64,000 nucleotides of DNA, taken from assembly GCA_964437095.1 (NCBI GenBank), contig CAYTFH010000002.1, positions 14,627 through 78,626 on the forward strand. The letters are read 5' to 3'. Position numbers and translations under genes: made by a program. Below, piece after piece: positions 1,623 to 64,000 of the stretch. Source of the DNA: an uncultured bacterium (GTDB taxonomy: Bacteria > Sysuimicrobiota > Sysuimicrobiia > Sysuimicrobiales > Sysuimicrobiaceae). A model generated the notes under the pieces. That model worked only from the letters and a program-made list of their open reading frames with translations. It did no database searches and was not told the origin of the DNA. How positions within the stretch are numbered: the stretch's first letter is position 1; every line of letters begins with the position of its first letter.

Positions 1623-2762
1623 GTGGGTCCCTGTGACGTGAAGAAAGCCCCCTCGAACTCGCGGGGAGCCCTCTGGGAGGTGGCCCTGGTGTTCCTCAAG
1701 CTGGGGGCCGTGGGGTTCGGGGGGCCCGCGGCCCACATCGCCCTGATGCACCGGGAGGTGGTGCGGCGTCGAGGGTGGGTGTCGGAGGGGGAGTTCCTGG
1801 ACCTGGTAGGCGCGGTCAACCTCATCCCGGGCCCCAACTCCACGGAGCTGGCCATCCACCTCGGCTACCGGAGGGCGGGATGGCCGGGCCTGGCGGTGGC
1901 GGGCGCGTGCTTCATCCTGCCTGCGTTCCTGGCGGTGCTGGGATGCGCGTGGGCGTACGTCCGGTACGGCCGGCTGCCGCAGGTGGCGTCCCTGCTGTAC
2001 GGGGTCAAGCCCGCGGTGGTGGCCCTGGTGGCCCTGGCGGTTTGGGGGCTGGGCCGCAGCGCGCTGAAGAACCGCCTGACTCAGGGGGTGGCGGCGGCGG
2101 TGCTCGCCCTGTGGTGGCTGGGAGTGCACGAGCTGGCGTTGCTGCTTGCCTCAGGCCTGGTCGTGGCGGTGGTGCGAGGGCATTCCGCGGGGGTGGTCGC
2201 GCTGGTGGCGGCCTCCGTACCCGCCGCAGCCGCCGCCTCGCCGTTCCAGCTGAGCACCCTGTTCTTCACCTTCCTGAAGATCGGGTCGGTGCTGTTCGGC
2301 AGCGGGTACGTGCTCCTCGCGTTCCTGCACGCGGACTTCGTGGTGCGCCTGGGATGGCTCACGGATGCGCAGCTCCTGGACGCGGTGGCCGTGGGGCAGG
2401 TGACCCCGGGCCCGGTGTTCACCACCGCCACCTTCGTGGGCTACGTCCTGGACGGATTTCGCGGCGCGGCGGCGGCCACCGCGGGGATCTTCCTCCCCGC
2501 CTTCGTGTTCGTGGCCCTCTCCCACCCCCTGCTGCCGCGGCTGCGGGCGTCACCCGTGGCCTCCAGCTTCTTGGATGGGGTGGTGGCGGCATCGTGGGCG
2601 TTGATGGCCGGCGTGGCCGTGCGGCTGGCGCTGGGCTCCGTGGTGGACGGCTTCACCGCCGCGGTGGCCCTGGTGGCCCTGGGGTTGTTCTGGCGCGGGG
2701 TCAACTCTGCCGCGGTGGTGCTGGGCGCGGCCCTGGCGGGCGTGTTGGTGCGGGGTCTGTGA
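1623..2762 (+). CDS. chrA: chromate transporter ChrA (two fused CHR halves)
   Basis: FGGPAAHIALMHREVV and LIPGPNSTELAIHLGY motifs in the first half, with a repeated homologous half (FLKIGSVLFGSGYVLLAFL...GQVTPGPVFTTATFVGY). Confidence 0.75.
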   Translation: MGPCDVKKAPSNSRGALWEVALVFLKLGAVGFGGPAAHIALMHREVVRRRGWVSEGEFLDLVGAVNLIPGPNSTELAIHLGYRRAGWPGLAVAGACFILPAFLAVLGCAWAYVRYGRLPQVASLLYGVKPAVVALVALAVWGLGRSALKNRLTQGVAAAVLALWWLGVHELALLLASGLVVAVVRGHSAGVVALVAASVPAAAAASPFQLSTLFFTFLKIGSVLFGSGYVLLAFLHADFVVRLGWLTDAQLLDAVAVGQVTPGPVFTTATFVGYVLDGFRGAAAATAGIFLPAFVFVALSHPLLPRLRASPVASSFLDGVVAASWALMAGVAVRLALGSVVDGFTAAVALVALGLFWRGVNSAAVVLGAALAGVLVRGL

Positions 2763-12537: not shown

Positions 12538-12543
12538 ATGCAC

Positions 12544-12584
12544 TGTCAAGAGACTTGACAATACCATTGTCAACCACGTAGCCT
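12544..12584 (+). promoter_or_regulatory. hspR-dnaK operon promoter with overlapping HAIR-like inverted repeats (putative HspR operator)
   Basis: TGTCAAG-aga-CTTGACA-atacca-TTGTCAA: CTTGACA-N7-TGTCAAC mirrors the HAIR consensus CTTGAGT-N7-ACTCAAG. -35 TTGACA (12555-12560), 18-nt spacer, -10-like TAGCCT (12579-12584). Confidence 0.6.
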
Positions 12585-12616: not shown

Positions 12617-12937
12617 GTGGCGGAGCGGACCTACCGGCGGGACGAGGTGCCGGTGTACGTGATCAGCGTGGCCGCGGAGCTGGCGGGGGTGCACCCCCGC
12701 ACCCTCCGGATCTACGAGGCCAAGGGGCTGATCCGGCCCGCCCGGCGGAAGCACATCCGGCTGTTCAGCGAGCGGGACGTGCAGCGGGTGCGGCTGATCC
12801 AGTACCTGACCCAGGAGGTGGGGCTGAACCTGGCGGGGGTGCGGCTGTTCCTGGAGATCCAGGAACGCCACGAGGAGGTGGCGCAGTGGTTGCTGGAGCT
12901 TTGCGACACCCAAACGGAAAGGAGGGAGCGGCGATGA
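12617..12937 (+). CDS. hspR: MerR-family heat-shock transcriptional repressor HspR-like
   Basis: [52 protein letters not shown] is a MerR HTH. The gene is first in the dnaK operon and an HAIR-like dyad lies upstream. Confidence 0.8.
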
Positions 12938-19905: not shown

Positions 19906-21029
19906 GGCCGCGCCTCAGCCCGCAAGGCGGCCGCGGGCACGGGCAGCCCGCAGCCCCGGAGCCGCTCCAGCCGGCCGTACAGATCCTCCAGGCTGTCCGC
20001 GCACACGGTCACGTGGCCCACCTTGCGCCCCGGCCGCACCGCCTTCCCGTACCAGTGGAAGTGGGTACCGGGGACCCGGAGGATGGGGGAGGGATCGGGG
20101 CGCTCGCCGATGAGGTTCACCATGGCGCAGCAGGTCCAGGGCCGGGTGGAACCCAAGGGGAGGCCCGCCACCGCCCGCACGTGGTTGGCGAACTGGCTGG
20201 TCTGGGTGCCCTCGATGGTCCAGTGGCCGGAGTTGTGCACCCGGGGCGCCATCTCGTTGGCCAGGAGTCCTGCGTCCGTTTCGAACAGCTCCAGGCAGAG
20301 GACGCCCACGTAGTCGAGGGCCTCCAGGGCACGCCGGGCGTACGCTTCCGCCGCCTCCGCCACACCTGCGGGGAGCTCTGGCGCCGGAGCCAGGGACAGG
20401 CGCAGGATCCCGCCTTCGTGGTGGTTCTCCACCACGGGGTAGCAGGCCACGTCGCCCGAGGCGCCGCGCACGGCCAGGACAGACAGCTCCCTGCGGAAGG
20501 CCACGAACTCCTCCACCACGAGAGGCCGGCCGCCCAGGACCTGCCACGCCGCGTCCACCTCCTGGGGCCGTTGCACCACCCGCTGCCCCTTCCCGTCGTA
20601 GCCCAGACTGCGGGTCTTCACCACGGCGGGCAGGCCCACCTGTTGCACCGCCTCGCGCAGGTCTTCCAGGGAGTCGACGGGCGAAAACCTTGCGGTGGGG
20701 ATCCCCAGGGAACGGAAGAACCGCTTCTCTGCCAGCCGGTCCTGCGCCACCTCCAGAGCCCTGGGGGGTGGGTGGACGGGGAGCCTGCGGGCCAGCTGCA
20801 CAGCCGTCTCCACGGGCACGTTCTCGAACTCGTACGTGACCCGGTGGCAGGTGCTCGCCAGCTCCTCCAGCGCCCGGGGGTCGCCGAACTCCGCCCGCAG
20901 GTGCAGCCCCACCGCGGCGGCACACGGGTCCTCCGCGGGATCCAGGTACGTGAACTGCAGGCCCAGGGGCAACCCCGCGAGACCCAGCATGCGGCCCAGC
21001 TGGCCGCCGCCCAGCACCCCGATCCTCAC
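19902..21029 (-). CDS. purK: N5-carboxyaminoimidazole ribonucleotide synthase PurK
   Basis: [15 protein letters not shown] start and an ATP-grasp fold. Overlaps the purE stop. Confidence 0.9.
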
Positions 21030-21523
21030 GGCGCCTCCCGCGGGTCCGGGTGGTCCAGCACCGCCTGGGTCTGGGCCGCCCGGTACCGGCGCAACGCCTC
21101 CCGGATGTGCGGGTACTTGTTGCCGAGGATGCTCGCCGCGAGCAACGCCGCGTTCACCGCACCCGCGCGGCCGATGGCCAAGGTCCCCACGGGGACCCCC
21201 GCGGGCATCTGGACGATGGACAGCAAGGAGTCCAGGCCCCGCAGGGCCTGGGACTCCACGGGTACGCCCAGCACGGGCAGGACCGTCTTCGCCGCGGTCA
21301 TCCCGGGTAGGTGGGCGGCCCCTCCTGCGCCCGCGATGATGACCTCCAGACCCCGGGCCTCCGCGGACTGCGCGTACTCGTACAGCAGGTCCGGGGTTCG
21401 GTGGGCGGACACCACCCGCACCTCGTAGGGAACGCCCAGCTGCTCCAGGGTGTCCGCGGCGTGGCGCAGGGTCTCCCAGTCCGACCGGGACCCCATGATG
21501 ACACCCACCAGAGGCTGCATCAA
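21026..21523 (-). CDS. purE: N5-CAIR mutase PurE
   Basis: [40 protein letters not shown] PurE signature. Confidence 0.9.
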
Positions 21524-21542
21524 GGGGATTGTAGCGCAGCCA

Positions 21543-22247
21543 TCAGGCGGGTTTGCGGGCCCGCACGGTCACGGACTGCACGGGCACCGCCCAGGGGTCC
21601 CCGCACCCGGCGTCCGCCACCTCCAGCACCTCCACGTCCTGAAAGCCCGCGGTTTCCAGCAGCTGGAGGTACTCCTCCCTCGGTGGTGCGCCGGCCACGC
21701 ACGCGCTCCACGCCTGGGGGTCCTCCGCCAGGTGAGGCGGGAGGGGGCCTGCGGCCACCACGTCGGAGACCACCAGCCGTCCTCCCGGTTTCAGCACCCG
21801 GTAGGCCTCCCGGAAGGCCCGGGGCTTGTCCGGCACGAGGTTCAGCACGCAGTTGCTCACCACCACGTCCGCGAAGCCGTCCGGCAGCGGCAGCGCCTCC
21901 AGGTCGCCCAGCACGAACCGGGCGTTGTGCACGCCCAGGACCGCGGCGTTGCGCCGCGCCAGGGCCACCATTTCCGGGGTCATGTCCACGCCCACGGCGC
22001 GTCCCTCCGGTCCGACCCGGGAAGCGGCCCGCAGGACGTCCAGGCCTGCGCCGCTCCCGAGGTCCACCACCACCTCTCCCGGCCGGAGGTCGGCGTGCGG
22101 GACGGGGCTACCGCAGCCCAGGGATGGACCCACTGCGCCCGCCGGCTGCGGCCCGGCGCGCTCACACTCGCAGCCGCAGCCCGTCGCCCCGCGAGCCACC
22201 CCACCGTAGTACTCGCGGACCTGCTCCTTGATGCGGCCGGCGTCCAC
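21543..22247 (-). CDS. arsM: arsenite S-adenosylmethionine methyltransferase ArsM-like
   Basis: [15 protein letters not shown]-binding motif plus conserved Cys residues (GCGCECE, LGCGSP, C-terminal AGCG). GTG start after GGAGGAGGTG. Confidence 0.7.
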
Positions 22248-22738
22248 TACCCACCTCCTCCAACGGTTCTCGGACACCCTCCGAAGGAGAATCCACGTTC
22301 TTCGATGGGAAGCGAACGCACCATGAGCCGGGCGCTTTCGGGACAGGCGCCCTGGAACTCCGCGGAGGCGCCAAGGCGCGGGTCGGCCTGGGAGCGGGGG
22401 ACCTCCCGGAAGCCGAAGTACCTGTGGAAGTACGCCGCCGCGGTCTCCGTGAGCAGGTACGCGTGCCGGGCTCCCTGTCGGGCGGCTTCGGACAGGGCGG
22501 CATGACAGAGACGCCGGGCCACGCCCTGGCCCCGGTGCGCGGGGTCGGTGGCCACCGACCGCAGGAGGGCCACCTGGCCGTACACCTCCACGCCTGCGGT
22601 CCCCACCACCGCACCTTGGTGCTCGGCCACCCAGAAGCCCGCCAGGTGCTCGCGCACGCCCGCCCCCGGCAGGCCACACCGCGCCAGCAGGTCGAGGATG
22701 GCGCCTTCGTCGGTGGCCGTGGCGCGTCGCAGGATCAT
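22247..22738 (-). CDS. GNAT family N-acetyltransferase (ArsN-like position in ars operon)
   Basis: VVGTAGVEVYGQVALLRSVATDPAHRGQGVARRL is a GNAT acetyl-CoA-binding motif. It lies between arsR and arsM. Confidence 0.65.
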   Translation of the reverse strand: MILRRATATDEGAILDLLARCGLPGAGVREHLAGFWVAEHQGAVVGTAGVEVYGQVALLRSVATDPAHRGQGVARRLCHAALSEAARQGARHAYLLTETAAAYFHRYFGFREVPRSQADPRLGASAEFQGACPESARLMVRSLPIEERGFSFGGCPRTVGGGG

Positions 22739-22747
22739 CTGTGCCCC

Positions 22748-23104
22748 CTACAGCAGGTCCACCAGCTCGGCCACGGCCCGTTTCAGGCCTGGCCTCCGGA
22801 TCCGGTAGTACACCCACGTCCCGCGGCGCTCCGCTTCCACGAGCCCCGCCTCCCGCAGCACCTTGAGGTGGTGGGACACCGTGGGCTGCGCCAGGGACAG
22901 CGCCTCCTGCAGCTCGCACACGCACAGGGGGCCGTGACGCGCCAGCAGCCGCAGCGCCACCACCCGTGCGGGCTCGGCCAGGGCCGCCAGCACGGACGCC
23001 GTGGCCTCGGCCCGCCGGCGGTCGTCTTCCAGCACCGGAGGCGGAGTACAGCCGCCCGCGGAGGGCACCCCGTCCGGGTGGGTGGGTCTCGCCAACGTCC
23101 GCAC
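22748..23104 (-). CDS. arsR: ArsR/SmtB family metalloregulatory transcriptional repressor
   Basis: LAEPARVVALRLLARHGPLCVCELQEALSLAQPTVSHHLKVL is a winged HTH with a CVC metal-binding motif. Confidence 0.8.
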   Translation of the reverse strand: MRTLARPTHPDGVPSAGGCTPPPVLEDDRRRAEATASVLAALAEPARVVALRLLARHGPLCVCELQEALSLAQPTVSHHLKVLREAGLVEAERRGTWVYYRIRRPGLKRAVAELVDLL

Positions 23105-23110
23105 GCCCCC

Positions 23111-23140
23111 AGGCTAGCAATTGAATCGAATACTGTCAAT
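23111..23140 (-). promoter_or_regulatory. arsR promoter (TTGACA-N17-TAGCCT) with an ATTGA-N11-TCAAT dyad; the predicted transcript is leaderless
   Basis: On the minus strand, -35 TTGACA, a 17-nt spacer and TAGCCT end 7 nt before the arsR GTG. There is no room for an SD, and the same -10 hexamer is used at the hspR promoter. Confidence 0.45.
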
Positions 23141-23170
23141 GTATCGCGGGGCTACGGGTCGGCCTCGTCT

Positions 23171-24418
23171 CTAGAGGGCCCGGGTGGCGCCGCGGCCCAG
23201 CACCACCAGGCCGGAGGGGTCCACGTGGTACCGGCGGGCGTCCTCCTCCAGGTCGAACCCGATGACGGTGCCGGGCTCCAGGGTGTTGAACCGGTCCACC
23301 ACCACGCGGCGCAGCCGCACCCCGGGCCGCAGCACGCAGTAGTCCATGACCACGGACTCCTCCACCTCCACGTCCTCCTCCACCCGGACCTCCCGGCCCA
23401 GCACGGACCGGACCACCCGCCCGCCGTGGATCACGCACCCCTCGCCGATCAGGGAGTCCCGGACCTCCCCGAACACGATGCGGGCGGAGGGACCCGCGTA
23501 GGGAGCTCCCTTGATGGGCCACAGGTGGTTGGACAGGTCGAACCGGGGCTGCGGGCCCAGCAGGTCCATGTGGGCCCGCCAGTACGCCTCCAGGGTCCCC
23601 ACGTCCCGCCAGTACCCGGGCTCTTCGTAGGGCTTGACGCCGGGGATCCGGTTGGTGTGGAAGTCGTACGCGAACACCCGGTGTCGGGACACCAGGGCGG
23701 GCAGGATGCTGCGGCCGAAGTCGTGCGCCGTGTCCTTCGAGGCGTCCTCCACCACGGCGTCCACCAGCAGCCTGGCGTCGAACAGGTAGTTCCCCATGGA
23801 GGCCAGGGCGAACCCCGGCCGGCCCGGCATGGGCCGGGGCCGGGCGGGCTTCTCTTCAAATCCGCGCACGCGTCCGTCGGGGTCCGTCTCCAGCACGCCC
23901 ATGCGGCTGGCCTCCTCCACGGGCACGGGCAGGGCGGCCACGGTGACCTCCGCCTCGCGCTCCAGGTGGAATTCCACCATCTGGGAGACGTCCATGCGGT
24001 AGATGTGGTCGGCCCCGAACACCGCCACCAGGGCCGGGCCGAAGTCGCGGATGAGGTTCAGGTTCTGGTACACCGCGTCCGCGGTGCCCCGGTACCAAGA
24101 GTCCCCCCAGCGCATCTGCGGAGGGACCACCAGGACGAAGTGGTCCTCGTGCAGGCCGCTGGCCCGCCAGGCGTGGCGCAGGTGGTCGATGAGGGACTGG
24201 GACTTGTACTGCACCAGGATGTACAGGGAGAACACGTTGGAGTTCACCAGGTTGCTCAGCACGAAGTCCACGATGCGGTACTTGCCCCCGAAGGGCACCG
24301 CGGGCTTGCTGCGGTCCCGGGTCAGGGGGTGTAGGCGCTCACCGCGGCCCCCCGCCAGCACCAGGCCCAGCGTGCGCCTGCGACCACCGGGAGACGGCCG
24401 GTCTCCGCTGTTGGACAT
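23171..24418 (-). CDS. glgC: glucose-1-phosphate adenylyltransferase GlgC
   Basis: LVLAGGRGERLHPLTRDRSKPAVPFGGKYRIVDFVLSN signature. Confidence 0.9.
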   Translation of the reverse strand: MSNSGDRPSPGGRRRTLGLVLAGGRGERLHPLTRDRSKPAVPFGGKYRIVDFVLSNLVNSNVFSLYILVQYKSQSLIDHLRHAWRASGLHEDHFVLVVPPQMRWGDSWYRGTADAVYQNLNLIRDFGPALVAVFGADHIYRMDVSQMVEFHLEREAEVTVAALPVPVEEASRMGVLETDPDGRVRGFEEKPARPRPMPGRPGFALASMGNYLFDARLLVDAVVEDASKDTAHDFGRSILPALVSRHRVFAYDFHTNRIPGVKPYEEPGYWRDVGTLEAYWRAHMDLLGPQPRFDLSNHLWPIKGAPYAGPSARIVFGEVRDSLIGEGCVIHGGRVVRSVLGREVRVEEDVEVEESVVMDYCVLRPGVRLRRVVVDRFNTLEPGTVIGFDLEEDARRYHVDPSGLVVLGRGATRAL

Positions 24419-25286: not shown

Positions 25287-27052
25287 CAGATCTCCCCCCG
25301 CGCGCGGCGGACGGCCAGGTCGATGAGCAGGGCCGCAGACCATCCGAAGCCGGGAGCCGCGCGGGTGCCGGGCTGGCCCGTCTCCGGGTTGTAGTACTCC
25401 CGGAGGTCGGGGGATTGGGCCAGCATCTCCAGGGTACGGTCGCACAGCTCCCTGGCTCGGTGGCGCTGCCCGCAGCGCAGCAAGCCGTCCACCAACAGGT
25501 AGTTCACGTTCACCCAAACCGGGCCGCGCCACATGCGGTCGGGGTCATATGCGGGGTCGGAGCGGGCCACGGTGGGGACGGGGTACGGTGCCCAGAAGGC
25601 CTCCGGGTCCTCCAGGCGATCCAGCAGGGCGCCCTGGACCGCGGGCGGGAGCCGCCCCGTGAGCAGGGGCAGCAAGCTCACCACCGTGAGGCTCGGTACC
25701 CGTTCGTGGCCACCGGGGACCATGCGCTGCGCCCAGAACAGGCCGGAGCGCGGGTCGTACAGGTGGTCCAGCAGGGCCTGCGCCAAGCGGTCCGCCTGCC
25801 GGCGCCAGGCTTGAGCGTCCTCCATCAAACCCAGGACCTCCGCCATGCGCCCCAGGGCCTCGGCCTGCAGGCACAGGTACGTGTTCAGGTCCGGCGACTC
25901 CACGGGCATGCCAAAGTCCCAGAGCGGGCTGTCGTCCAGCCCGGACGAGAACGGGTGGTCGTACTGGCACACCCCATCCCCGTCCCGGTCGCAGCGTTCC
26001 AGCCACCAGGCCTGCCAACGGCTCAGGGGCTCGTACATCTCGTCCAGGAAGTCCGCGTCCTGGGTGGCCTCGTACACCCGCCACAGGCACCACCCCGCCA
26101 CGGGCGGCTTGGTGACGGAGGCGTCCACGGGGTAGCCCATGCGCTCCACCACGCCCTCGTCGAACACACAGTCGGGCACCATCCCGTCGGGCCGCTGGTG
26201 GTCGAACAGGACCCGGAACTGGTCGTGGGCCAGCTGTGGGTCCACGTGCCGGTACGCCAGGGCGTGGAAGAAGGCGTCCCACTGCCACAGCCCCACGTAG
26301 TGCACCTTGGACGGCACCATGGCCTCCCGCGTCACGTAGAACCGGCTGCTGATGAGCCCGGCCCGCATCAGGTACCACGCGTACAGATACGCCGGCCGGA
26401 GTCCCGGCAGCGCTGCGGGGATCCGGTCGAACCACTCCCGCCACCGCTGCTCCGCGGCCTCGAAGACACCCGAGGGCTGGATACGGCGGTCAAAGCCCAG
26501 GCGCGGGGTGACGTTGAGGGTGAACAGGGGATCCGGGTGGTGGCCTACCACCACGGTGACCTGCCACTGGCCGGAATCCGTGGCCGCGGCCTCGTTGCGG
26601 AGCACGGGGGCGTTGGTGGTGTACGCCACGTTGCGGATCCCCCGGGCGCGACCTCCCCGCCGGTCGGGGGTCAGGCTGTCGGCCCGGACCACGAACCGGA
26701 TCCCCCAGGGGCCCGGAGGGGGCCTTAAAGCCAGCAGCTCGGGGGTGGCGAAGCACAGCTGGAAGGACCCGAGGGGAGTGCGGAACACCAGCTTGTGCGG
26801 GTAGCAGCTCAGGTCCCACCGGAGCGGGTTGCCCTGGCCGTCCAGCAGCTCCACCTCCTTCACCAGCGGCGGCCGCACCCGGTACGTGCCCTCCGTGTAC
26901 TCCAGCTTCGGCCACCGCTCGCACACCCGCACGTACAGCCGCGGCCGGTCCGGCTCCCGGAACACCAGGATGCGGCTGCCGCGGTCCGTGAAGGGCACCA
27001 CGGTGGGGTCCAGGCGGGAGCCCACCACCTCCAAGGGGTCGGCTTCAGGCAT
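25286..27052 (-). CDS. GH63 family glycoside hydrolase, likely glucosylglycerate/mannosylglycerate hydrolase
   Basis: (alpha/alpha)6 GH63-like segments (GLWQWDAFFHALA, WRGPVWVNVNYLLVDGL). Adjacent to gpgS. Confidence 0.6.
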   Translation of the reverse strand: MPEADPLEVVGSRLDPTVVPFTDRGSRILVFREPDRPRLYVRVCERWPKLEYTEGTYRVRPPLVKEVELLDGQGNPLRWDLSCYPHKLVFRTPLGSFQLCFATPELLALRPPPGPWGIRFVVRADSLTPDRRGGRARGIRNVAYTTNAPVLRNEAAATDSGQWQVTVVVGHHPDPLFTLNVTPRLGFDRRIQPSGVFEAAEQRWREWFDRIPAALPGLRPAYLYAWYLMRAGLISSRFYVTREAMVPSKVHYVGLWQWDAFFHALAYRHVDPQLAHDQFRVLFDHQRPDGMVPDCVFDEGVVERMGYPVDASVTKPPVAGWCLWRVYEATQDADFLDEMYEPLSRWQAWWLERCDRDGDGVCQYDHPFSSGLDDSPLWDFGMPVESPDLNTYLCLQAEALGRMAEVLGLMEDAQAWRRQADRLAQALLDHLYDPRSGLFWAQRMVPGGHERVPSLTVVSLLPLLTGRLPPAVQGALLDRLEDPEAFWAPYPVPTVARSDPAYDPDRMWRGPVWVNVNYLLVDGLLRCGQRHRARELCDRTLEMLAQSPDLREYYNPETGQPGTRAAPGFGWSAALLIDLAVRRARGEI

Positions 27053-28868
27053 GGGAAGGTCCCCCGGAGGCCAGCAGGGCCGCGCGGCGGGCACGGTACT
27101 CGGGCACGGTGAGCACGGGCGGGCGCTCCACCTCCACCACCTCCCGCTCCTCCAGGAACAACTGGCCCAGCTCGTGGCGGATGAGCTTCATGGTGCGGGA
27201 CGCGGAGTCCAACAGGGGCGTGCCGATCCGGTCCTCCAGCCGCCGCGCCACCACCTGGACGATCTGGAACGCCATGAGGGACAGGCTCTGGAGGGACTGG
27301 TTGCGGTGGATGCGCTGCTCCAGGTCCACCTGTCCGATGGCGTGCAGCCCGAACCGGCTCAACAGGTCGATGAGCATGCCGGTCTCCACCCCGTAGCCGG
27401 TGAAGAAGGGGATCTGCTCCAGGGCCTCCCTCCGTCCCGCGTACTCACCCGCCAGGGGCTGGATGAGGCCGGACAGTTCCGGGAAGAACAGGTTGAACAG
27501 CGGGCGCGCCACCAGCTCCGTCACCCGGCCGCCGCCGGTCTCGTACAGCCGGTCCCCGATCTGCACGGGCCGTCGGTAGTACCCTTTGACGAACAGGATG
27601 CGCTCCTCCCGGAGCAGGGGGCCCACCAGGCCGTACACGAACTTGGGGTGCATGTTGCGGATGTCCGTGTCCACCCACACCACCACGTCCCCCCGCACCA
27701 CGTACAGGCTCTTCCACAGGGCCTCCCCCTTGCCCCGGTAGGAGCCCAGGTGGGGCAGGATCTCCCGGTGGCGGTACACGGGGATCCCTTCCGCCTCCGC
27801 GATCCCCCGGGTGCGGTCGGTGGAGTCGCTGTCGATGAGGACCATCTCGTCCAGGAGGGGTACCTCCCGCATGAGGCGGTCCCGCAGTACCCGGATCACG
27901 CTCCCGACGGTCTCCTCCTCGTTGAGGGCGGGCAGGGCCAAGCTGATGGTCCAGCCGCGGCGCCGCTTGAGCTCCACCAGGTGGTCCAGGTCCTCGAACT
28001 CCCGGGCGTGGAAGGTGTTCTCCGCGAACCACTTCTCCACTTCCGGCCGCGACCACCGGGCCGGGGCGGTGGCGTGCTCCTGTAGCCACACCTGCACCGA
28101 CCGGCCGGTGCGGACCACCACCAGCGGGGCGATGGCGCGCAGGGGAGGTTGCACCGCGGGCCGCGCGGGGTCCGCGGTGGCGCCCACCACCACCGCGGTG
28201 TAGCGGGGGGCCTCCTGGGCGATGACGTGGGCGGCGCTGCCCGTGGCGATGCGCTTCCGCACCCCCTGCTCCGCCCGCTGCATCACCACCAGGTACGGCC
28301 GCTCCTCCCGCCAACGGTCCCGCTCCGGGATGTCCTCCCGGAACACGTGCAGGGCGGTGACCTCACCTCCCGCGGCCTCTGCCAGGGCCTGCGCCACCCG
28401 CAGGGCCAGCTCCGCGTTGGGCCCGCCCCGCACGCCCACCAGGACCCGCGAGAAGTCCTGGGGAGCCAGGGGCGGGGCCAGGACCACGTCGCACGGAGCC
28501 GTCCTCAGCAGGTCGTCCACCCGCAGGCCGAACACGGGCTCCTCCAGGGAGCCCGGGCGCAGGACCACCAGGAGCTCTGCCGCCTCCTCCCGGCACGCGG
28601 AGGTCACTTCCCGCCAGGAGTCGTGGCCCGCCCGAACCAGCACCCGCACCGCCTCGGCCCCAGGCCGGCTCCGGGCCGCCCGCTCCAGGTCCTCCCTGGC
28701 CCGCTGTGCCGCGGTGGCCGCGGTGCTCAGGGGCTCGTCGGGGGGGACGGGCACGGGGTACAGGAGCACCGGGTCGGCGCCCCACGCCCGCGCCAGGGGC
28801 AGGAGGAGCTCTAGGACTCCGGCCGCGCGCTCCGGCTGGGTGAGGGTTGCCAGGACCGTACGCTTCAT
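27045..28868 (-). CDS. gpgS: universal stress protein (tandem Usp) fused to glucosyl-3-phosphoglycerate synthase GpgS (GT81)
   Basis: The C-terminal ~320 aa align colinearly with mycobacterial GpgS (ISLALPALNEEETVGSV, LIDSDSTD, GKGEALWKSL, GGGRVTELVARPL, SGEYAGRRE, GYGVETGMLID). The N-terminal ~290 aa have two UspA-like halves. Confidence 0.8.
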   Translation of the reverse strand: MKRTVLATLTQPERAAGVLELLLPLARAWGADPVLLYPVPVPPDEPLSTAATAAQRAREDLERAARSRPGAEAVRVLVRAGHDSWREVTSACREEAAELLVVLRPGSLEEPVFGLRVDDLLRTAPCDVVLAPPLAPQDFSRVLVGVRGGPNAELALRVAQALAEAAGGEVTALHVFREDIPERDRWREERPYLVVMQRAEQGVRKRIATGSAAHVIAQEAPRYTAVVVGATADPARPAVQPPLRAIAPLVVVRTGRSVQVWLQEHATAPARWSRPEVEKWFAENTFHAREFEDLDHLVELKRRRGWTISLALPALNEEETVGSVIRVLRDRLMREVPLLDEMVLIDSDSTDRTRGIAEAEGIPVYRHREILPHLGSYRGKGEALWKSLYVVRGDVVVWVDTDIRNMHPKFVYGLVGPLLREERILFVKGYYRRPVQIGDRLYETGGGRVTELVARPLFNLFFPELSGLIQPLAGEYAGRREALEQIPFFTGYGVETGMLIDLLSRFGLHAIGQVDLEQRIHRNQSLQSLSLMAFQIVQVVARRLEDRIGTPLLDSASRTMKLIRHELGQLFLEEREVVEVERPPVLTVPEYRARRAALLASGGPSHA

Positions 28869-28948
28869 GCAAGGGCAGTTTACCGCCCTGCCGCGGTGGG
28901 CACGAGCCGACAGGTGTTGATCGACCCGGCCCCGAAGATAACGGAGTC

Positions 28949-46161: not shown

Positions 46162-46546
46162 GGTAGCAGAACGGCCCGGGACAGGCCCCCGGTGGTATAA
46201 TGCGGCCGTGACCGCCGCACGGGAGCTGCTGGACCGCGTGGTGCGCTCGGTGAGGGAGGGTGCCACCTCCGTGGCGCGGGAGTCCGAGCGCCTCGCGCGG
46301 GTGGCGCGGGTCCGCCTGGAGATCGGGACCCTGCAGGCCCGGCTGGAGGACCGGTACACGGACATCGGTCGGGTGGTGCACGCCCGTTACCGAGCGGGTA
46401 CTTTGGCGGACCCGGAGCTGGCGGCGCTGTGCCAGCCCGCGGAAGCCCTGGAAGCGGAGATCCGCAGGCTGGAGCAGGAGCTGGCGGACCTGCGCAGCGC
46501 GGAAGGCGGCTCCGGTCCGGAGGGCCGGGGCGGCTCCGGGGGCTAG
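46160..46546 (+). CDS. hypothetical coiled-coil protein
   Basis: ORF only; heptad-like LEAEIRRLEQELADLRS. Start uncertain. Its ATG shares the CCATGG palindrome with the argS start on the other strand. Confidence 0.3.
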   Translation: MVAERPGTGPRWYNAAVTAARELLDRVVRSVREGATSVARESERLARVARVRLEIGTLQARLEDRYTDIGRVVHARYRAGTLADPELAALCQPAEALEAEIRRLEQELADLRSAEGGSGPEGRGGSGG

Positions 46547-60034: not shown

Positions 60035-60405
60035 ATGCGCTTCGTCCTCGTCTTGCTGGGCGGTGCTCTGGGAGCCCTGGCCCGTTACCTGGTGGACGAT
60101 GGATCCTGAGCCGCCCGGACACGGGCTTCCCCTTCGGCACCCTGGTGGTGAACCTGTCCGGCAGCTTCCTGCCGGGGCTCCTATCCGTGCTGACGGTGGA
60201 GCGGCTCCTGGTACCCGGGGAGTGGCGGATCTTACTCGGGGTGGGGTTCTTGGGCGCGTACACCACCTTCTCCACCTGGCAGTACGAGACCTTCCGATCG
60301 CTGGAGGCGGGGCAGTGGGCGGCGGGCCTGGTGAACCTGTTCGGGAGCGCGGTGGCCGGGCTCGCCGCCCTGGCCCTCGGTGTCCTGGTGGCACGGGCCT
60401 GGTGA
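60035..60405 (+). pseudogene. crcB: fluoride channel CrcB/Fluc, interrupted by a -1 frameshift (or a sequencing error)
   Basis: Frame A encodes MRFVLVLLGGALGALARYLVDDGS then a stop at 60107. The rest of CrcB (GFPFGTLVVNLSGSFLPGLL...GAYTTFSTWQYE) continues in the -1 frame to 60405. Restoring one T near 60098-60101 gives ARYLVDDWILSRPDTGFPFGTL, a normal CrcB spacing. Confidence 0.55.
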
Positions 60406-63209: not shown

Positions 63210-63241
63210 TTGACCTTCCGGTTTGCGGGAAGCTGTAGGTT
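63210..63241 (+). promoter_or_regulatory. MerR/CueR-type promoter upstream of the P1B-ATPase gene
   Basis: TTGACC-ttccggtttgcgggaagctg-TAGGTT has a 19/20-bp spacer containing a CCTTCC...GGGAAG dyad. Recalled as nearly the same layout as E. coli PcopA (TTGACCTTCC...GGAAGG). Confidence 0.5.
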
Positions 63242-63279
63242 GGGGCGGGAGAAAGAGAGAGGCGCGGAGGGGAGTCCCG

Positions 63280-64000
63280 GTGACTGCGGGGGCTGCCAAG
63301 CTCCTCGTGAAGCTCGGAGGCATGCACTGCTCTTTGTGCGTGGAGTCGGCGCGCAAGGCGGTTCGCAGGCTCCCCGGCGTTCGGTCTGTTCACGTGTCCA
63401 TCGCCCACAGCGAAGCCCTGGTGGAATACGACCCGGCGCGCGTGAGCCCTGAGGCCATCTCCGAGGCTCTCCGAGCCGTGGGCTTCCCGGTCCTGCCCCC
63501 CGACGAGGCCGGGCGCCTTGCGGAGGAGGAACGGGAGCTGCGCCGGGCGCGGGGGCTGGCGTGGCTGGGGGGCGCCCTGATGGCCGCCGCCACGGCCCTG
63601 ATGGGCGCGAGCGCCCTGTGGGGGCTCAGCAGGGCGCGGGCGCTGGTGCTGGGGGCTTTGGCCCTGGGGACGGCTGTGGGGCCCGCGGCGTGGGTCCTGC
63701 GCAACGCCTGGCAGTCCGTGCGCCGGGGCATCCTCAACCAGGACGTGCTGGCGGCCGCCTCGGCCCTGGCGGGTCTTGGGGGCGGCATCGTAGGGCTGTG
63801 GTCCCCCCGCCTTCCCCGCCGGAGAGTTCTTCGCCGCCGCGGTGTTCGTGTTCGGCTTCCACCTCGTGGGCGGCTACCTTTCGGTGCTGGTGCACGTACG
63901 CGCTTCCCAGTCGGTCCGCAAGCTGCTGAGCTTGGCCCCGGCCACCGCATGGAGGGTGCTGCCGGACGGGTCGGAGGAGGAAGTCCCGGTGGGGGGGCTG
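63280..64000 (+). CDS. copA: heavy-metal (copper-type) P1B-ATPase, partial, with apparent +1 frameshift in a C6 run
   Basis: N-terminal HMA domain (GMHCSLCVESARKAV). The P-type ATPase TM region shifts frame at CCCCCC (63804-63809). Deleting one C gives LWSPAFPAGEFFAAAVFVFGFHLVGGYLSVLVHVRASQSVRKLL. GTG start after GGAGGGGAG. Confidence 0.65.
   Translation, partial: MTAGAAKLLVKLGGMHCSLCVESARKAVRRLPGVRSVHVSIAHSEALVEYDPARVSPEAISEALRAVGFPVLPPDEAGRLAEEERELRRARGLAWLGGALMAAATALMGASALWGLSRARALVLGALALGTAVGPAAWVLRNAWQSVRRGILNQDVLAAASALAGLGGGIVGLWSPRLPRRRVLRRRGVRVRLPPRGRLPFGAGARTRFPVGPQAAELGPGHRMEGAAGRVGGGSPGGGA

Follow-up and report, generated by a model that had tools for sequence, protein, structure and literature searches.

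Acetyltransferases of the GNAT family have been linked to ars operons since arsN was first reported in 2009, and reviews have left the function of ArsN open since then, later ones calling it unresolved (PMC6205960, PMC12607644). Nadar et al. (2019) recognised two clades of ars-operon GNATs: ArsN1, which is PAT-like and acetylates arsinothricin, and ArsN2, which is related to N-acetylglutamate synthases (NAGS) and was left unstudied (PMC6465285). Pump-less operons with the methyltransferase ArsM are also described; the arsR-arsM-arsC operon (ArarsRMC) of Arsenicibacter rosenii SM-1 is inducible by As(III) and by methylarsenite (MAs(III)), and gives E. coli AW3110 tolerance to both (PMC11868830). 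Here we analysed a 64,000-nucleotide stretch (the window; G+C 72%) of contig CAYTFH010000002.1 from an uncultured bacterium of the Sysuimicrobiota, in which three co-directional open reading frames (ORFs) on the minus strand (21543-23170) encode ArsR, ArsN2 and ArsM. We consider it probable that arsR-arsN2-arsM of Sysuimicrobiota is a chromosomal, self-regulated As(III)-methylating operon, repressed by ArsR and leaderless, with ArsN2 acting in the ArsM pathway.

The locus is a known type of ars operon in altered form, in a phylum without an earlier ars description. Candidatus Sysuimicrobiota (formerly CSP1-3) is a hot-spring phylum known from metagenome-assembled genomes (MAGs) and enrichments, and ars genes go unmentioned in the main text of the phylum paper (PMC11604079). 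As in ArarsRMC and in arsR-arsM operons, ArsR would be the repressor and ArsM the effector, and there is no efflux pump. The locus differs from the A. rosenii operon in having ArsN2 in place of ArsC, an ArsR with a helix-3 CVC motif rather than the atypical site of ArArsR, another operator (Bacteroidota use ATCGTAATATTGCGAT) and a transcript predicted to be leaderless. With the ars operons that hold clade-2 arsN it has in common the protein family, the NAGS-like character and the ars-operon location.

Identity of the arsR, arsN2 and arsM products

We called ORFs in the window with a codon log-odds model, which replaced a GC3-based greedy caller that had placed a spurious plus-strand ORF in the ars region, and assigned families with curated profile models (NCBIfam, Pfam) and their cut-offs, taking NCBIfam matches at E ≤ 0.001. 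The 118-aa product of arsR (22748-23104, GTG start) scored 101.9 bits against NF033788 (cut-off 55) and 65.5 bits against PF01022, the 163-aa GNAT (22247-22738, ATG start) 141.1 bits against NF040501 (cut-off 125), and the 234-aa product of arsM (21543-22247, GTG start) 258 bits against NF008823 (cut-off 263). ORFs and family scans thus agree with the initial annotation, made from the sequence before this analysis, on the presence and position of an ArsR, an ars-operon GNAT and an ArsM. The arsR stop and the arsN2 start are 9 nt apart; arsM is preceded by GGAGGAGGTGG, and its start shares one base with the arsN2 stop (TAGTG).

NF040501, the equivalog model 'arsenic resistance N-acetyltransferase ArsN2', is covered at positions 3-132 of 133. 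The nearest solved sequences are the M. tuberculosis single-domain N-acetylglutamate synthase or amino-acid acetyltransferase entries 5yge and 5yo2. The structure model (predicted local distance difference test score 92.4) has the N-acetylglutamate synthases 2r8v, 5yo2 and 5yge as its top fold matches, with a PAT structure at rank 50, and neither the ArsN1 nor the PAT family occurs among the NCBIfam or solved-sequence matches. By family model and predicted fold, the GNAT is ArsN2, of the NAGS-like clade, and not ArsN1. The earlier proposal of a GNAT in the ArsN position was therefore right as to an ars-operon ArsN, but the protein belongs with ArsN2 rather than with the arsinothricin-acetylating ArsN1 that had been invoked; PpArsN1, the arsinothricin N-acetyltransferase, is also an ars-operon GNAT but of the PAT-like clade, of which the window protein is no member. 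A housekeeping acetyltransferase of the RimI type, against which the initial annotation had proposed to check the GNAT, is ruled out by score (25 bits with the rimI model). Two motifs are conserved: RGQGVA, for acetyl-CoA, and ASAEFxGACPxSA, which is specific to the family, lies C-terminally and includes a nearly invariant cysteine. The NAGS-type fold suggests a glutamate-like amino acid as substrate.

In Burkholderiales, arsN2 loci hold arsC, an aquaporin gene, arsH and a gene for a major facilitator superfamily (MFS) transporter, and no arsM, whereas in the window arsN2 is paired only with arsR and arsM. The Burkholderiales neighbourhood (locus L050 and others) also holds a cysteine-rich MarR, and in L050 (9932-11818) and other Roseateles/Pelomonas loci the ArsN2 frame seems to run on into a flavin-dependent oxidoreductase-like domain, as a fusion or an ORF run-on. 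Distant ArsN2-like GNATs (P0036, P0053 and P0062; 43-51% identity) are encoded outside ars contexts. (L numbers denote ArsN2-bearing loci compared with the window, P numbers proteins or protein clusters.)

All the best solved relatives of the window ArsM are ArsM enzymes, with which it shares the fold binding S-adenosylmethionine (SAM) and four conserved cysteines. In the alignments, Cys45, Cys133 and Cys183 take the positions of Cys72, Cys174 and Cys224 of the CmArsM entries 4fr0/4fs8, and Cys26 that of Cys46 of 5evj. The protein differs from these structures in its length of only 234 aa, in having no C-terminal domain and in its short N-terminal domain with a CxCxC motif (Cys24, Cys26, Cys28), which covers the position of the first catalytic cysteine (CmArsM Cys44). 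Among 27 arsN2-linked ArsMs, Cys24, Cys133 and Cys183 are present in all, Cys45 in 26 and Cys28 in 23. The first cysteine of ArsM is required for As(III) and dispensable for methylarsenite. Its presence argues for arsenite, and inorganic As(III) is the likely substrate of the window enzyme.

The winged-helix ArsR/SmtB domain of ArsR was confirmed, although by a generic helix-turn-helix (HTH) model, and the protein is 39% identical to ArsR of E. coli K-12. It resembles the type 1 ArsRs (plasmid R773, E. coli chromosome) as a winged-helix repressor with an LCVC motif in helix 3, encoded by the first gene of what would be an autoregulated operon. Cys61 and Cys63 (LCVCEL) are invariant in ten of ten Sysuimicrobiota lineages; of the three type 1 positions (Cys32, Cys34 and Cys37 of R773), the third is Gln66 here. 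Unlike type 1 ArsRs, it has an N-arm of about 35 residues that recalls the N-arm sites of CadC and CgArsR and sometimes bears a cysteine (Cys19 in the window; five of the ten lineages), and its candidate operator overlaps the -35 element.

We searched the window in six frames with tblastn for Acr3, ArsB, both ArsC types, ArsH, aquaporin and three MFS transporters. Related loci supplied Acr3 (TIGR00832, 462 bits) and thioredoxin-type ArsC, E. coli K-12 supplied ArsB and the glutaredoxin-type ArsC, and arsN2 neighbourhoods supplied the ArsH, aquaporin and MFS queries. None of these queries (ArsP and ArsI were not among them) found a match in the window better than E = 0.26, and arsR was the only gene recovered with ars query proteins. 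Neither the ArsB or Acr3 pump nor the arsenate reductase of a canonical efflux operon was found in this locus, and the earlier statement that arsB/acr3 and arsC are missing nearby holds over 64 kb, which implies nothing for other parts of the genome. The membrane proteins encoded in the window are ChrA, an ABC permease, DoxX, DUF1385, CrcB and MscS; CcmF and an NRAMP transporter were recognised by eye in translations. In the region 63210-64000 (plus strand), a P1B-type heavy-metal ATPase gene (HMA domain, GMHCSLC) starts at about 63280, 40 kb from the ars genes, with an apparent frameshift at about 63800. Upstream of it are TTGACC and TAGGTT with a 20-nt spacer that holds a CTTCCGG...CGGGAAG dyad, as in MerR/CueR-controlled promoters. 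Genes for other toxic ions are those of the ChrA chromate transporter (1623-2762, plus strand; 278 bits) and the CrcB fluoride channel (60145-60405, plus strand).

The missing pump had been taken earlier to mean handling of organoarsenicals rather than of arsenite. This is not the best reading, as the four ArsM cysteines are those associated with methylation of inorganic As(III) and pump-less arsR-arsM-arsC gives As(III) tolerance (PMC11868830); since that operon is both inducible and protective, a missing pump is ordinary for methylation modules. A resistance module for organoarsenicals of the arsinothricin type, as proposed there, is in our estimate unlikely. Arsinothricin is a glutamate analogue (PMC6465285), which would suit an enzyme with the fold of glutamate N-acetylating enzymes, and the window ArsM is a partial, weak match to ArsM models of arsinothricin biosynthesis. 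That match is, however, 143 bits where the cut-off is 500, which rules out an arsinothricin-biosynthesis ArsM; the known arsinothricin acetyltransferase is the PAT-like ArsN1, to which the GNAT has no model match; ArsM retains the first cysteine for inorganic As(III); and the CVC site of ArsR is of the arsenite type. Among the genes of the window, no homologue of arsL or arsQ was recognised either (neither was searched for directly).

Promoter, predicted transcription start and candidate operator

Upstream of arsR the minus strand reads TTGACA (23134-23139), 17 nt of spacer, TAGCCT (23111-23116), GGGGGC and the GTG start (23102-23104), so that six bases separate the -10 hexamer from the start codon and its G is the seventh base after the -10. 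We compared this arrangement across ten Sysuimicrobiota lineages and found TTGAC(A/G)-N16/17-TAGCCT-N6-ATG/GTG throughout, with TACGCT for TAGCCT in L010 only and a seventh base before the start codon in L018. The codon alternates between ATG and GTG, its T and G being invariant columns, and is in frame with ArsR in all ten, although the ArsR N-arm diverges almost completely between lineages, as do the flanks; every indel keeps the frame. Sigma-70-type polymerases normally start at a purine 7 nt after the -10, so the arsR mRNA should begin at its start codon, and TAGCCT-N6-GTG leaves no room for a Shine-Dalgarno sequence. A leaderless arsR mRNA, proposed in the initial annotation, is thus strongly supported by the comparison between lineages.

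TAGCCT agrees with TATAAT at only three of six positions, which is why a consensus scan for promoters and terminators over 21000-24000 detected nothing. Its suggested role as a genuine -10 variant is nevertheless borne out by its conservation in nine of the ten lineages. In the window, TTGACA-N16-19-TAGCCT occurs twice (0.00 expected), and TAGCCT itself only twice in the 128 kb of both strands (8.7 expected), each time 17-18 nt after TTGACA. The looser TTGANN-N16-18-TANNNT has four sites in the 128 kb, every one of them 5' of a gene and correctly oriented. The second TAGCCT belongs, as had been claimed, to the promoter of an HspR-like MerR gene (12617-12937; HspR model NF047375, 92.5 bits, cut-off 105), where TTGACA-N18-TAGCCTGGGG (12555-12584, plus strand) has the same TAGCCTGGGG as the arsR promoter. 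This gene is not leaderless, having a leader of about 32 nt and a GAGGGA Shine-Dalgarno sequence before its GTG. Around and inside the spacer of its promoter (12540-12584, plus strand) are overlapping palindromes, TGTCAA-N5-TTGACA and TTGACAAT-ACC-ATTGTCAA, which are probably the HspR operator of an hspR-hsp20-dnaK-grpE-dnaJ-clpB cluster.

A -10 box 6-8 nt before a start codon is found at only 12 of 4214 ATG/GTG triplets in the window. Further leaderless-type starts are TATAAT-N6-GTG (46193-46210, plus strand), before a 112-aa ORF without a family match (46208-46546), and TAAACT-N8-ATG (28868-28882, minus strand), before a gene for a Usp-domain glucosyl-3-phosphoglycerate synthase (GpgS; 27045-28868). 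The arsR genes of two Litorilinea loci (L039, L090) have the same promoter layout as arsR of the window. Leaderless mRNAs of Deinococcus and Actinobacteria likewise have a -10 of the TANNNT type, some 7 nt upstream of the ATG or GTG at which both transcription and translation start, and in D. deserti they make up 60% of mRNAs (PMC6300522). The predicted leaderless arsR mRNA differs in its phylum and in its unusual GC-rich -10 box, TAGCCT.

The -35 element lies within a candidate ArsR operator, ATTGACAGTATTCGAT (23125-23140, minus strand), an imperfect 6-4-6 inverted repeat. Between lineages the invariant element is ATTGAC-N4-(G/T)TCGAT, in which ATTGAC, the left half that includes the -35, and TCGAT are invariant columns. 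Scanning 94 loci with the pattern ATTGACNNNNKTCNAT gave 20 matches in 19 loci and none elsewhere in the 94: 19 are directly upstream of arsR and one lies between arsR and arsN2 (L057). The motif is also found upstream of arsR in Chloroflexota arsR-arsN2-arsM loci, with two tandem copies in L039. The armatimonadotal arsR-arsN2-arsM locus L057 has the perfect palindrome ATTGATCTCTGTCAAT (ATTGAT-N4-GTCAAT) upstream of arsR; its operator-like copies are at 1225-1240 and 1675-1690, the second being the one between arsR and arsN2. We infer that ATTGAC-N4-KTCGAT is the ArsR site, and ArsR bound there would occlude the -35. The dyad ATTGA-N11-TCAAT (23120-23140, minus strand), noticed earlier over the -35, is present in the sequence but is rejected as the operator: an equivalent 5-bp inverted repeat arises in 52% of shuffles of the 66-nt spacer, and of the ten lineages only three (window, L001, L010) retain the outer TCAAT. 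Bacteroidota arsR-arsM-arsN2 loci (L048, L051, L076, L078) have another conserved palindrome, ATCGTAATATTGCGAT, just before arsR, presumably the operator of an ArArsR-type repressor.

The ars genes are flanked on the same strand by glgC (23171-24418) and purE (21026-21523). No terminator was detected on either side (glgC/ars or arsM/purE) in the scan of 21000-24000, and a scan of the whole window with Rfam at the gathering threshold found no RNA family. In the 19-nt gap between arsM and purE there is, however, a -10 box, TACAAT (21528-21533, minus strand), 7 nt before the purE ATG (21520). TACAAT-N7-ATG is kept in 11 of 11 loci, nine of them with the extended TGnTACAAT, and purE is predicted to be leaderless too. 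Since purE has its own promoter, the ars unit consists of three genes, although read-through across it is likely. In L009 (7856-8001; compare window 22748-23170) about two-thirds of arsR have been deleted together with its promoter, leaving a C-terminal remnant of 39 codons that begins with an ATG overlapping the stop of glgC (TGATG). Both arsN2 and arsM are intact, and in that lineage they must be expressed constitutively by read-through from glgC.

These observations bear on whether the transcript is leaderless at all. The ars genes may instead be transcribed mainly as part of the glgC operon or from a more distant upstream start, with ArsR beginning at an internal codon and the conserved ATG/GTG being incidental. 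The missing terminator after glgC and the promoter-less but otherwise intact L009 would fit this, as would the preference of the codon model for a GTG at 23035 and the choice by one gene caller of an internal ATG (84 aa) for ArsR of L005. We nevertheless consider it improbable: the start codon stays 6-7 nt after the -10 in ten lineages while alternating between its two forms, all indels in the divergent N-arm preserve the frame, the internal candidates all lack a preceding Shine-Dalgarno sequence, and the same layout recurs at Litorilinea arsR and at purE.

Linkage of ArsN2 with ArsM

We collected 80 species-level loci via ArsN2, with an alignment of 11 ArsN2 sequences as query. All-against-all ORF clustering served only for the choice of reference proteins, which were then verified with NCBIfam, as run-on ORFs had merged ArsN2 with ArsM in the clusters; antisense ORFs were plentiful too. 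In 22 of the 80 loci, from at least six phyla, arsN2 has an arsM gene no more than 3 kb away: five loci of Sysuimicrobiota, eight of Chloroflexota, one of Armatimonadota, two of Gemmatimonadota, five of Bacteroidota and one of Bathyarchaeia. The order is arsR-arsN2-arsM in Sysuimicrobiota, Armatimonadota and six of the eight Chloroflexota loci, and arsR-arsM-arsN2 in Gemmatimonadota and Bacteroidota; the Ktedonobacteria loci of Chloroflexota (L030, L052) have no adjacent arsR. Out to 10 kb, the Sysuimicrobiota loci and L019, L085 and L090 hold neither a pump nor a reductase. An MFS transporter is added in two of the Chloroflexota loci, and a thioredoxin-type arsC and acr3 in those of Bacteroidota.

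On a Caldilineaceae chromosome (L037, 9980-11398) the two proteins are encoded in one 473-aa ORF, with ArsN2 at residues 16-145 (134 bits) and ArsM at 168-472 (281 bits). Used as a database query, this ORF found at least 20 protein clusters (402-473 aa) with GNAT and methyltransferase domains (within P0086-P0143), Caldilineaceae and Roseiflexaceae MAGs among them. Six fused clusters were checked, and all exceeded both curated cut-offs; three are ArsN2-ArsM and three ArsM-ArsN2, and L037 adds a fourth of the former order. The L037 fusion and the six clusters score 281-326 bits against NF008823. In the literature library that was searched, no paper combining ArsM, GNAT and fusion was found. Independent fusion in either domain order, gene adjacency conserved across phyla and, in the window, the overlap of 1 nt are classic signs of ArsN2 and ArsM acting in one pathway.

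It is possible, though doubtful, that ArsN2 and ArsM, which in some Chloroflexota form one polypeptide, are halves of one conserved pathway in which arsenic is methylated with SAM and an amino-bearing arsenical is N-acetylated with acetyl-CoA, the two reactions being coupled. The substrate of such a pathway may be a glutamate-like organoarsenical or a conjugate of arsenic with cysteine or another low-molecular-weight thiol.

Within the phylum the setting of the locus is also conserved. The order glgC-arsR-arsN2-arsM-purE-purK is kept in all Sysuimicrobiota relatives with ArsN2 at 61-72% identity, as part of a longer block on one strand: a gene for a GpgS-like glycosyltransferase, one for a GH63 hydrolase, MscS, glgC, the ars genes, purE, purK and a zincin gene, with a divergent PGI gene upstream. 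Because this neighbourhood is kept in every such relative, the three genes appear to be an old, vertically inherited chromosomal insertion and not a mobile island. Of the contigs that reach far enough downstream, those of the window, L007 and L009 carry clpB-dnaJ-grpE-dnaK on the other strand; that of L010 does not. Identical ars proteins are present on metagenome contigs. The closest named genomes are bacterium HR32 and Candidatus Tepidifontimicrobium thermophilum, which belongs to Candidatus Sysuimicrobiota, and the best match among species-representative genomes is only 68% identical.

A proposed mode of action

Together, these comparisons suggest the following mechanism. Without arsenic, an ArsR dimer would sit on the 16-bp imperfect inverted repeat ATTGAC-N4-TTCGAT, which includes the -35, and block RNA polymerase. 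Trivalent arsenic would bind the helix-3 residues Cys61 and Cys63, with Cys19 of the N-arm perhaps serving as third ligand, and release ArsR. Transcription would then start at the G that opens the arsR GTG, or no more than one base from it, and arsR would be translated from a leaderless mRNA without a Shine-Dalgarno sequence, followed by arsN2 and arsM with their own ribosome-binding sites and the 1-nt stop/start overlap. With SAM, ArsM would methylate As(III), giving monomethyl, dimethyl and trimethyl products, the last of them volatile, so that detoxification would proceed by transformation and not by efflux from the ars locus. ArsN2 looks like an active acetyl-CoA-dependent NAGS-type acetyltransferase and would act in the ArsM pathway on some amine substrate.

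Several observations weigh against this mechanism. ArsM falls 5 bits under its family cut-off, has a short N-terminus and is without the C-terminal domain seen in algal ArsM structures. Helix 3 of ArsR has only two cysteines, the third position being Gln, and an N-arm cysteine is found in just half of the lineages. Two-cysteine ArsRs can be methylarsenite-selective (PMC11868830), which makes the inducer uncertain; it could be MAs(III) rather than As(III). In the codon model, the score over the first 23 codons of arsR was slightly negative. The absence of terminators between glgC, the ars genes and purE, together with the L009 deletion, means that read-through also occurs or suffices. An efflux system may lie elsewhere in the genome, the pump-less result covering the 64-kb window. 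Finally, the operon picture is drawn from sequence comparison, in a phylum that is uncultured.

A methylating locus could also serve offence. In low-oxygen hot-spring mats, ArsM would make toxic MAs(III) as a weapon, and ArsN2 would be part of the self-protection of the producer. The idea that MAs(III) served anaerobic methylators as a primordial antibiotic is established (PMC11868830), Sysuimicrobiota are predicted to be facultative anaerobes (PMC11604079), and ArsN2 is the sole partner left in the window, where there is no arsH or MFS gene such as arsK (arsP and arsI were not searched for). MAs(III), however, has no amino group for a GNAT, control by an arsenic-sensing repressor is typical of detoxification, and the present evidence is the same for plain detoxification; we give this explanation little credence. 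It is most improbable that the locus has nothing to do with arsenic and consists of a generic ArsR/SmtB sensor of metals or sulfur species with a housekeeping acetyltransferase and methyltransferase, even though the ArsR/SmtB family senses many ligands and its HTH model is generic, ArsM is slightly below its cut-off and distant ArsN2-like GNATs (≤ 51% identity) occur outside ars contexts, because the ArsN2 equivalog is above its cut-off, all four ArsM cysteines are conserved and in Bacteroidota arsR-arsM-arsN2 is followed by thioredoxin-type arsC and acr3.

ArsR-controlled arsM operons and arsN2 genes are each known already, and an As(III)-methylating ars operon as such is unsurprising. The comparison documents an arsenic-methylation module as what appears to be a stable, vertically inherited chromosomal trait of the uncultured hot-spring phylum Sysuimicrobiota. 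For this phylum it also makes, by comparison, a clean case that transcription can be leaderless and that the GC-rich TAGCCT can act as a -10 box, and it yields a candidate ArsR operator common to several phyla. If true, the coupled ArsN2-ArsM pathway would be an undescribed branch of arsenic biochemistry and would give ArsN2 a function. The main value of the finding is that gene order, and fusions in both orientations, narrow the search for the function of ArsN2, which can be tested in E. coli.

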